From: an uncultured Acidobacteriota bacterium
Lineage (GTDB): Bacteria > Acidobacteriota > Polarisedimenticolia > J045
Length of the DNA: 64,000 nucleotides
Assembly: GCA_963702425.1 (NCBI GenBank)
Contig: CAVPCQ010000038.1
Location: 4,992-68,991 of the forward strand
Direction: 5' to 3'
Position 1 is the first letter of the stretch. Each line of letters begins with the position of its first letter. Shown here piece by piece: positions 33,001 to 36,000 of this stretch. The position numbers are program-made.

Positions 33001-36000
33001 CCGACGGAGTCCCATCGTGCGCCGCATGCTCCAGTTGCTGTCATCAGGGTGCCTCGCCGCACTCGCGGGCGGGTGCGCCGCCGCCGATTCGCCGGCAGCC
33101 GAGGAATGGGCGCGCTGGATGCTGCGCGGGCTGCCCGGGGTCTCGGTCGCGTGCACCCCGAAGCTGGAAAGCGACCCAGCCATGACCGTCCACTGCGTCG
33201 ACCTGGAGATGCCGTGGAACGAGTTTCGGCGGGAGTGGGAGTCCGCCCTCCGGTCGGCCGGCCGGTCGTTTCCCGACACGGGGTGGCTCGATGAGGGGAA
33301 GCTGAAGCGCCGGCGCTACATCGTCTTCGACGTGCCCGTCGACGTTTTTCGAGACTCCGCGGGCTCGGGCCTGGTGATCGCGGTCCCGCGCTTCTTCCTG
33401 GATTGCGACGAGGTGAACTGGGGCGATGTGATCGACCTCGACCAGGACACCTCGGGGGAGATCACGCGCCCGCAGCTCGAGCACCGGGTCGAGGCCGTCT
33501 ACCCGGAACGCGAGCGCCGGGCCAGGCGCCTAGTGTCACGTAACCGAAGTCACGCTAACGCCGGGGCGGTCTGGCAAGCCGATGGCTGCGTTGCTCCTCC
33601 TTGCTGTACGGTTCAGTACAGCGTCGTCGTCGCGCCTTGCCCTCGGCTCACCATCCTCGCCCTGGCATTAACCTGACTTCGGTTACGTGACACTAGGCAG
33701 GGTCTGGATGATGGGACTGATCCGCACGGATGGGCACGTCGCGCCGCTCTGCATCAAGTCGTCGGAGGGCGCCACGCCCGCGATGAACTCCGCCGCGCTG
33801 CGCGCGCTCGCGCAGTGGCGCTACGCGCCGGCGCTGCGGGACGGCCAGCCGATCGCGGTGCGATTCGTGGTGGCCATCAGTTTCTCCGTCCGCTAGACGC
33901 GGCGGCGCACCGGCACCTACGGTGCACGCGAACCGACGCGCAGCATCGCCGCCGCTCCGATGCGCCGCTCGTCCCCCCGTCGCCCCTCGACGCGCCAGTA
34001 GAGCGAGCCGCCGTCGCGCGCCAGCGCCGTCGCGCGGCGCCACTGGTCGGCGCCCGGGGTCCACGACGTCGCACGGGTCCAGCGGCCGGAGGTCACGATC
34101 CGCCCGGCGGCCTGCGGGTCGGCGCTGAAGACGACGCGGCATTCGTCCATTCCGGCCGCGTCCCAGGAGAACGTCGGGAGCCGGTCGGGCACGGCCGCCG
34201 CCGCGCCGCCGCCCGCCGCCAAGCCCGCCGCCGTGTCCACCACCGCGCCATCGCCCGGCGCCAGCGGCCGCGGCGCGGTGTCGTCCGGGTACCACCGGGG
34301 GAACGCGTCCCCCCGCGGCCAGGCCTCGGCGCGCGCCGCGGCGCGCCGCAGCACGGACTCGACCTCCCACAGGAACGCCTCGGTCTGCACCGGCTTCGTA
34401 TTGAAGACCGCCGCGAACGCGCGGCCGTCGGTGATCCGCATCAGCAGCGCCGTCGAGCCGAAGAGCGAGCCGCCGTGCCAGACGGCGGCGCGCGGCCCGT
34501 CGGGACGCACGTACCAGCCCAGGCCGTACCAGGCATCGCGCAGGATCCAGGTCGATAGCTGCGGGCGGAGCAGCATCAGGCGCTGGGTACCGGGCGAAAG
34601 GAGATCCGGCCGCTCCGGCAGCCCGTCCACCGCCGTCATGAAGCGCACGAGGTCGATCGCGGAAGCGGTCCAGCCGCCCGCGCTGTCCATCGCCTCGATG
34701 TAAAACCCGCCATCCGGCCAGGCGACCAGGTCCTCCTCGTCCGGGAAGACCGAGCGGACGAGCGCGCGAACTCCGGAGTCGTAGTAGCGCACCTCGCCGG
34801 CTGGCCGGTCCGCGGGCCGGGAGCGCCCGATCCGCATCCGCGTGATCCCGAGCGGGGCGAGGATTGCGCTCCGCACGTACTCCTCGTAGCCCATCCCGGA
34901 AGCGTGCTCGATGACCCGGCCGAGCAGCGCGTAGCCGAAGTTGGAGTAGGAAAAGCGGCCGCCCGGCGAGAAGTCGAGCGGCCGACCCTTCACGAAGCGG
35001 ATCACCGTGCGCGCGTCGGCGGGGGCGGGGGCGTCGACGGCCTGCGCGGTGAGGCGCGGCGCGAACATCGGGTCGAGCGAGAGCAGGCGATCCCAGCCGG
35101 CGGAGTGGTTGAGCAGGTCGCGCACCGTGATCCGCTCCAGCCGCGGGTCGGGGCTGGCGCCGGCGGGAGGAGCGAGGTCGGGGAACATCGGGAAGACGCG
35201 CTCGTCGAGGCGCAGCCTCCCGTCCTCGACCAGTTCGAGGATCGCGGTCGCGGTCACCGTCTTGGAGACGCTGCCGATCCGGAAGACCGCATCCGGGGCG
35301 ACGGGCAGGCCGCGCGCGACGTCGGCGTAGCCGAAGCCGCGAGCGTAGACGAGGCGGTCGTCGCGGATCACGGCCAGCGCGCCGCCGGGGATCTCCCAGC
35401 GCTCCATCAGCGCCAGCATCTCGCGGTCGAAAGCGGCCAGGCCGGGCACGGCCGTGCCGGTGATCGGGAAGGGGTGCGTCTCGCGGGCGACGGGGGTCCG
35501 GCCGGGGGCGGGGGCCGGGGCGGCGGCAGGCAGGGCCGCGGGAGGCGGGGCAGCGCACGGTCCCGGCGTGGCCACGAGGCCCGTCGAGAGGAAGGCGACG
35601 ATCGCGAGGCGCCGGCCGGGCATCCGCGAGACCTCCGGGAGCGGGATTATGCCCGCCCCGGGGCCCCCCGGCTGCGCCGCCCGAAGGGGCCGGCCTTCGT
35701 GCCGGACCGACCGACGACGGGCAACCAGCGGGCCGGCACAGAGGCCGGCCCGACCGACGACAGGCAACCTGCGGGCCGGCACAGAGGCCGGCCCCTACGG
35801 CGTCATCAGGGAGTCGGCTCCTCGCCCGAGGTGCCGGCGGCGTTCTTCGCCGCGACCAGGTAGAACGACGAACCGCTCGCGGCCCCGCCGGTCGTGTCGC
35901 GCCACGCGGCCGACGTCGGTTCGCCGACCGCCCCGTACCCGCCGGTCGGCGTCCCCGAGCGGTAGACCGGGTAGGTGCGGGCCGCGTCGTGCAGTGCGTC

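Follow-up and report, generated by a model that had tools for sequence, protein, structure and literature searches.

A 159-bp inverted-repeat element, very probably derived from an IS630-family insertion sequence, interrupts a TonB_C-domain gene in an uncultured Acidobacteriota bacterium

In a 64-kb stretch of contig CAVPCQ010000038.1 from an uncultured Acidobacteriota bacterium (the whole 64,000 nucleotides [nt] analysed here are called the window), a gene for a small protein with a TonB_C domain is interrupted by a 159-bp miniature inverted-repeat transposable element (MITE). The MITE that landed in this gene is very probably a non-autonomous derivative of an insertion sequence (IS) of the IS630 family, about 1.13 kb long. 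An earlier note on the same DNA had proposed the interruption, and every coordinate and count on which that proposal rested holds, including an open reading frame (ORF) at 32759..33676. The locus comprises the following features.

33006-33009, plus strand: GGAG, resembling a Shine-Dalgarno sequence and placed 7 nt before the GTG start codon
33017-33532, plus strand: 5' gene fragment, codons 1 to 172, with a signal-peptide-like N terminus, about 150 amino acids (aa) and the first TonB_C strand
33530-33533, no strand: left CTAG; under the IS630 model, the TA at 33531-33532 is the left copy of the duplication
33533-33676, plus strand: read-through into the MITE, 47 element-encoded codons followed by TGA at 33674-33676
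33534-33692, no strand: MITE core of 159 bp, folding as a long imperfect palindrome and known in five copies at unrelated sites
33534-33552, plus strand: left terminal inverted repeat, TGTCACGTAACCGAAGTCA, which matches the right end of IS630-family elements in contigs L009, L014 and L015
33674-33692, minus strand: right terminal inverted repeat, the perfect complement of the left one
33693-33696, no strand: right CTAG, holding at 33694-33695 the right-hand TA of the duplication under the IS630 model
33697-33896, plus strand: 3' gene fragment, the rest of TonB_C and a TAG stop codon, separated from the start codon and signal peptide

The mechanically longest ORF entering the element is the one at 32759..33676, and the real start is likely the GTG at 33017. 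This start agrees with the 219-aa product deposited in NCBI/ENA (P0003), which ends with a leucine followed by the 47 element-encoded codons. Neither the 219-aa product nor its tail (VSRNRSH...LALT) has a Pfam match. When the 163 bp at 33534-33696 are deleted, the two fragments rejoin as a 717-nt ORF of 238 aa, reading ...YPERERRARRLGRVWMMGLIRTDGHV... and having ...RRARRLGRVWMMG... at the junction. The reconstructed protein matches Pfam TonB_C (PF03544) over profile positions 3 to 78 of 79, across the junction (51.9 bits; cut-off, 24.6), so that a contiguous TonB_C motif is restored, as had been claimed. The 5' fragment supplies profile positions 3 to 15, and the downstream 69-aa ORF (33687-33896) covers positions 16 to 78 only; the MITE thus splits the domain between its first and second strands.

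Like canonical TonB, the reconstructed protein contains the TonB_C domain nearly end to end, but canonical TonB has a membrane anchor and a proline-rich spacer, whereas this protein has a cleavable-looking signal peptide and an N-terminal region of about 150 aa. The first 160 aa have no Pfam match and, by inspection, no proline-rich tract. The earlier description of the product as a lipoprotein is not supported by comparison with homologues: Cys20, the candidate cysteine of an LAGGC lipobox, is replaced by Phe or Ser in most full-length homologues, and it is the AAA/DSP site that is conserved. In our judgment, the conserved AAA/D site suggests an ordinary signal peptide of the signal-peptidase I type. 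The gene would now yield the signal peptide and N-terminal region followed by a 47-residue nonsense tail in place of TonB_C, and the remaining C-terminal 66 codons would have neither a start nor an export signal of their own. Given a predicted product that lacks the TonB_C domain and 3' codons that lack start and export signals, the interrupted gene is most likely a pseudogene.

Intact relatives of the gene exist. A search of 5.8 billion protein clusters returned only three clusters (90% identity), namely P0001 (235 aa, 98% identical, uninterrupted), P0002 (238 aa, 84% identical) and P0003, the truncated product itself. When these clusters were expanded, 17 homologues, uninterrupted or partial, were obtained; each aligns with the reconstruction at the junction without gaps and without extra residues there. 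The earlier note had named a junction that fails to align with homologues, or a natural insertion at this point among them, as outcomes that would count against an interrupted gene; the reconstruction aligns gap-free to the 17 uninterrupted homologues, and 0 of the 17 has an insertion at the site.

The same picture emerges from DNA. Contigs L001, L002 and L003 each show a single clean gap of 163 bp when aligned with the window, and the reconstructed gene is identical to L001 at 708 of 717 positions and to L002 at 707 of 717, such that relatives with 98.6 to 98.7% DNA identity over the gene do not carry the MITE in it. Taken separately, the 5' fragment has 98 to 99% DNA identity to the uninterrupted alleles of L001 and L002, and the 3' fragment has 99 to 99.5% identity to those of L002 and L001. 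Gene order is kept as well: downstream of another intact allele (L017) lies a beta-lactamase-family gene in the opposite orientation, and the place of this gene is taken in the window by a long ORF of that orientation, 33917..35782. In an allele from another lineage (L018, positions 110-825; JGI 3300035200), the TonB_C gene is split into ORFs of 119 and 118 aa by a 1-nt deletion (CCCAT-GACG versus CCCGTCGACG). Either the sequence is in error here or the gene was inactivated independently; at the MITE insertion site this allele reads GCA-GGC-AAG.

The element has the architecture expected of a MITE. Its terminal inverted repeats are perfect over 19 bp, and the longer arms, of 41 nt, are 90% complementary; the sequence reads CTAG-TGTCACGTAACCGAAGTCA from 33530 and TGACTTCGGTTACGTGACA-CTAG from 33674. 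The terminal 19-mer or its perfect complement occurs four times in the window, accounting for the ends of two elements, versus 0.01 occurrences expected from shuffled sequences. The G+C content of the core is 61%, as against 72% for the window, and its DNA has a folding energy of -51.9 kcal/mol (z = -9.35). The only reading frame through the 159-bp core is the read-through from the host gene. In an Rfam scan of 32000-34500, no match came close to a gathering score, indicating that the MITE does not belong to a known RNA family.

A second copy of the MITE lies elsewhere in the window.

55689-55847, no strand: second MITE copy, identical at 157 of 159 positions, with CTAG at 55685-55688 and at 55848-55851

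The two window copies carry distinct single-nucleotide polymorphisms (SNPs). A contig from a close relative (L001) holds a further copy, and an acidobacterial metagenome-assembled genome (MAG), MFD02979.bin.1.81, contains two full copies (L005 and L007) and a 31-bp mini-version (L008). The five full copies share a length of exactly 159 bp and are identical at 152 to 157 of 159 positions; their flanking sequences are unrelated, and each is bordered by CTAG on both sides. The element at 33534-33692 is confirmed as a genuine mobile, multicopy repeat. The earlier note had called its insertion recent, which must be moderated: relative to the other four copies, this one has two private substitutions among its 159 positions (at 33553 and 33555), so it is not brand new.

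A scan with the 19-mer over 185,579 species genomes (596 Gb) detected only five loci, and by our estimate about four chance matches are expected in 596 Gb. Two of the loci, L004 (Microgenomates) and L006 (Bdellovibrionaceae), were set aside as chance or unrelated matches, each involving a single end in DNA of 39 to 44% G+C; L010 to L013, from a 19-mer scan of metagenomes, are likewise single-end matches, in DNA of 45% G+C. The mini-element (L008, 2770-2808) lies between two CTAGs; in it, 12 nt from one repeat are fused to the other repeat, which is complete at 19 nt. It would be either a relic of the MITE or a derivative shortened by internal deletion. This IS630-derived MITE of high-G+C, probably acidobacterial, soil lineages is previously undescribed; a literature search returned no paper combining IS630, MITE and Acidobacteria.

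The tetranucleotide bordering these copies is itself scarce. CTAG occurs only 12 times in 64 kb (at 2849, 12329, 18254, 23306, 32972, 33530, 33693, 33893, 41201, 49998, 55685 and 55848), whereas base composition predicts 162 occurrences and a Markov estimate 70, a 6- to 13-fold underrepresentation. For the other palindromic tetramers with this base composition, the counts are 84 to 132 (GTAC, 132; CATG, 84). Four of the 12 CTAGs flank the two MITE copies.

Most of the surviving MITE copies are placed at TAG stop codons, where they do no harm, the copy at 33534-33692 being the gene-killing exception. The second window copy lies exactly between two convergent genes, 53013-55688 on the plus strand (a Kelch-like ORF of 891 aa, with a G+C content at third codon positions [GC3] of 0.86) and 55848-57572 on the minus strand (a permease-like membrane protein of 574 aa; GC3, 0.96), and the TAG stop codons of both genes fall within the flanking CTAGs. 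Before insertion, this site would have consisted of a single CTAG in which the stop codons of the two genes overlapped; as a control for the empty site, the C-terminal 212 aa of the Kelch-like ORF were used as a query, and no homologue was found at an E value of 1e-20 or below, which left the TonB_C gene as the one locus with filled and empty sites to compare. The MITE copies in L001, L005 and L007 also adjoin long ORFs of high GC3.

The stop codon of the TonB_C gene itself lies in a CTAG (33893-33896) that pre-exists in the window, L002 and L016, and that carries no insertion in the window or in L016. A MITE copy follows directly after this stop-codon CTAG in L001 (1013-1179), for which the evidence comes from the left flank only, and in L002 (991-1018), the stop-codon CTAG is followed by a different low-G+C sequence (TACTACTGTGTCATAAGC...) that continues to the end of the contig. 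The stop-codon CTAG looks like an insertion hotspot, and its states in the window, L001, L016 and L002 favour canonical targeting of a pre-existing CTAG.

The parentage of the MITE comes from autonomous elements that share its ends. In contig L009, recovered by the metagenome scan, the 19-mer and the adjacent subterminal bases occur directly after the stop codon of a 351-aa ORF that matches the NCBIfam model for IS630 family transposases (NF033545) with 227 bits, against a cut-off of 100. This transposase also matches Pfam DDE_3 and four helix-turn-helix (HTH) models (HTH_32, HTH_29, HTH_23 and HTH_28), and IS630 was the only NCBIfam model to exceed its curated cut-off. Full-length relatives of the L009 element are present in L014 (1,132 bp; transposase 94% identical) and in L015 (transposase 82% identical), each with CTAG on both sides. 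The right end of the L009 element contains the identical 19-mer, those of L014 and L015 are identical to it at 17 to 18 of 19 positions and share the adjacent subterminal sequence, and both ends of the MITE resemble this IS right end over about 30 nt. The MITE is assigned to the IS630 family because its ends match those of elements that encode IS630-family transposases. In L009 (1081-1084), the right end of the IS is followed by CTGG rather than CTAG, and its left end is off the contig; the CTGG could reflect decay or a non-canonical site.

Members of the IS630 family duplicate a TA upon insertion, and their integration strictly requires only this TA (PMC2170065); for IS630 itself, a reference listed in PMC2170065 (Tenzen & Ohtsubo 1991) points to TA within CTAG as the target. 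On this basis, the MITE would have been mobilised in trans by an IS630-family DDE transposase. Transposition would proceed by cut and paste, the transposase alone sufficing to excise the element, as is known for the IS630/Tc1-mariner family. The transposon 3' ends would then attack a TA, here in the preferred context of CTAG, with a 2-bp stagger, and host repair would duplicate the TA. The integration point would be the codon after Arg171 of the small, presumably exported TonB_C-domain protein.

The earlier note had described a 4-bp target duplication. CTAG is indeed present on both sides of the element, and a TA is present on both sides of every MITE copy; the IS630 parent, however, makes a duplication of TA likelier. 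The filled site exceeds the empty site by exactly 163 bp, which can be partitioned as 159 + 4 or 161 + 2. Under the IS630 model the element spans 33533-33693 (161 bp), and both models of duplication remove the same 163 bp. Since the parent element belongs to the IS630 family, the duplicated sequence is most likely the TA within a CTAG target and not the 4 bp.

Although frame and length are restored by removing the element, the bases at the junction are not those of any intact allele. The reconstruction reads CTA-GGC-AGG (Leu-Gly-Arg), and the six intact DNA alleles (L001, L002, L003, L016, L017 and L018) have GCA, GCC or ACC followed by GGC-AAG (Ala/Thr-Gly-Lys), a difference of 3 nt and 2 aa from all six. 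At the position corresponding to 33530-33533 these alleles have GCAG, GCCG or ACCG, and the 17 intact proteins have [A/T]-G-K, as opposed to L-G-R. Thus, the claim that the exact pre-insertion allele can be recovered stands for frame and length, and the bases are unverified.

Several observations weigh against the insertion of an IS630-derived MITE as described here. Neither TA nor CTAG is present at the insertion point in any of the six intact DNA alleles, and the 17 proteins are likewise negative; a scan of JGI metagenomes for the exact junction found no intact CTAG allele, and the exact reconstructed protein is absent from a collection of 15 billion proteins. Of the eight differences in the gene that are specific to the window, three fall within 9 nt of the junction (P of about 1e-4; with the adjacent pair taken as a single event, P of about 3e-3). 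Moreover, the reconstructed codons are rare, CTA specifying 0.7% of Leu and AGG 3.9% of Arg in the confident ORFs of the window. A tblastn search found no transposase within the 64-kb window; the palindromic nature of CTAG makes 2-bp and 4-bp duplications inseparable from sequence; and the copy at the stop-codon CTAG in L001 was rejected as a clean filled/empty pair, its right flank being unlike the window, which suggests a rearrangement or a chimeric contig.

The anomaly is concentrated at one end of the element. Across the left junction there are five window-specific changes in 45 nt (33511, 33530, 33531, 33553 and 33555), and one more, A>G, is found at 33700; the other 137 nt of the MITE and the 3' fragment beyond 33700 are free of them. 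Most likely, a TA or a CTAG had been created by a variant particular to this lineage, present in its immediate ancestor and not among the alleles sampled, and part of the changes near the junction may have arisen after the gene was inactivated. An alternative alignment, invoking a 167-bp insertion without duplication together with deletion of GCAA, was rejected as less parsimonious, the two events not being adjacent.

How the junction came to differ from the intact alleles can be explained in several ways. One, which is that of the earlier note, holds that the insertion was canonical, that the ancestor literally read CGC-CTA-GGC-AGG and was a functional Leu-Gly-Arg allele, and that the junction has not changed since, which is possible but which we hold only tentatively. 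It accounts directly for the exact restoration of frame and length and for the fact that all other MITE copies, as well as the complete IS copies in L014 and L015, are in CTAG. Because CTAG is so rare, with about 10 original sites in 64 kb of which two are occupied, a newly arisen CTAG would have been a conspicuous target. This literal ancestor would, however, have to have gained three lineage-specific substitutions within 9 nt before the insertion, in a gene that is otherwise about 99% identical (the clustering of P of about 1e-4 noted above), and to have used two rare codons, and no such allele was met with in any search. In addition, the two private substitutions close to the junction demonstrate that changes have occurred there after insertion.

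In another account, which we consider somewhat unlikely, the element entered a minimal TA. Here, a single C>T change (GCA>GTA, Ala>Val) would have produced G-TA-G, and the flanks would have been altered afterwards. The proposed later changes in the dead gene are G>C at 33530, A>G at 33700 and the two within the element, possibly through error-prone repair or hairpin-templated correction of the long palindrome. The strict requirement of the family for TA only (PMC2170065) is consistent with such a site, as are the five changes in 45 nt, two of which lie inside the MITE and are hence later than its origin; furthermore, the G>C at 33530 lengthens the perfect inverted repeat to GCCTAG...CTAGGC. 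Set against this are the strong preference displayed by the ten MITE flanks and both flanks of L014 and L015, all of which are CTAG, the lack of a template in the opposite arm for the two private changes inside the element, and the failure to observe any intermediate allele.

A more radical version, which we consider improbable, is that the original target was something other than CTAG (GCAG or G-TA-G) and that the flanks of the element were rewritten afterwards, either by mutagenic or non-canonical integration or by hairpin-templated (quasi-palindrome) correction involving the long inverted repeat. Such rewriting would account for the five lineage-specific changes in 45 nt at the left junction. 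If this were true, the target duplications of palindromic MITEs would be made in part after insertion, and reconstructions of empty sites from flanking sequence could mislead.

The two remaining explanations fare worse. An artefact of assembly or consensus, either a misassembled repeat in a MAG or polishing errors at the junction bases, is very improbable: the window apparently derives from a MAG-like contig (P0003 is encoded on an NCBI/ENA contig of 68,991 bp), and the L001 contig shows that repeat flanks can be inconsistent between assemblies, but both flanks at this locus are collinear with one gene, the insertion is exact to the base, the two window copies are resolved with their distinct SNPs, and a chimera would not place the two halves of a gene on either side of the element. 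Least credible of all is an IS5-type MITE with a true 4-bp duplication of CTAG, like MITEPsy1 of Pseudomonas syringae, since, despite the CTAG on both sides of every copy and the existence of IS5-derived MITEs with CTAG/YTAA duplications (PMC3189936), every autonomous element found to share these ends encodes an IS630-family transposase that scores well above the cut-off, and no IS5-family model was among the NCBIfam matches.

The preferred interpretation, insertion of an IS630-derived MITE, has close parallels in known systems. IS630 of Shigella sonnei and ISY100 resemble the elements in L009, L014 and L015, which have a single HTH and DDE_3 transposase matching the IS630 model; the full-length elements, at about 1.1 kb, are in CTAG, where, according to references cited in PMC2170065, IS630 duplicates TA. 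The MITE of the window differs from these in lacking a transposase, in having two ends that are both like the IS right end, rather than one of each kind, and in residing in a high-G+C, probably acidobacterial host. The RUP element of pneumococcus (107 bp, attributed to IS630-Spn1) is similarly short and non-autonomous, with IS630-like inverted repeats and insertion at TA (PMC2229807), but it is unrelated in sequence and host and is shorter than the 159 bp of the MITE described here. RUP has been reported in intergenic regions and within IS elements, whereas the present copy interrupts a protein-coding gene and its family is strictly associated with CTAG. MITEPsy1 is also a small MITE that targets and is flanked by CTAG (PMC3189936), but it derives from IS5/ISPsy2 and is described as duplicating 4 nt, unlike the window MITE, with its IS630-family parent and its likely TA duplication.

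There is nothing unusual or poorly understood in the inactivation of a TonB_C gene by an IS630-type MITE; only the clustered substitutions at the junction go beyond the textbook. For annotation, the locus should be read as one disrupted gene plus a mobile element in place of the deposited record of a 219-aa protein with a nonsense tail, and the MITE could be used as a strain marker. As a caution of method, excising an element along with one repeat restores the frame and length of a gene and not necessarily its ancestral bases.

Other repeats occur upstream of the gene, and they belong to a family different from the MITE. At 32435-32538 there is a 28-nt tandem repeat in three overlapping copies, and a unit of about 28 to 31 nt, TGTGCATTCGAGGGGGTCCTCTGTCGCC, is present twice at 32729-32790 and, in inverted orientation, twice at 32543-32597. 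These upstream repeat units are conserved in L001 and L002.

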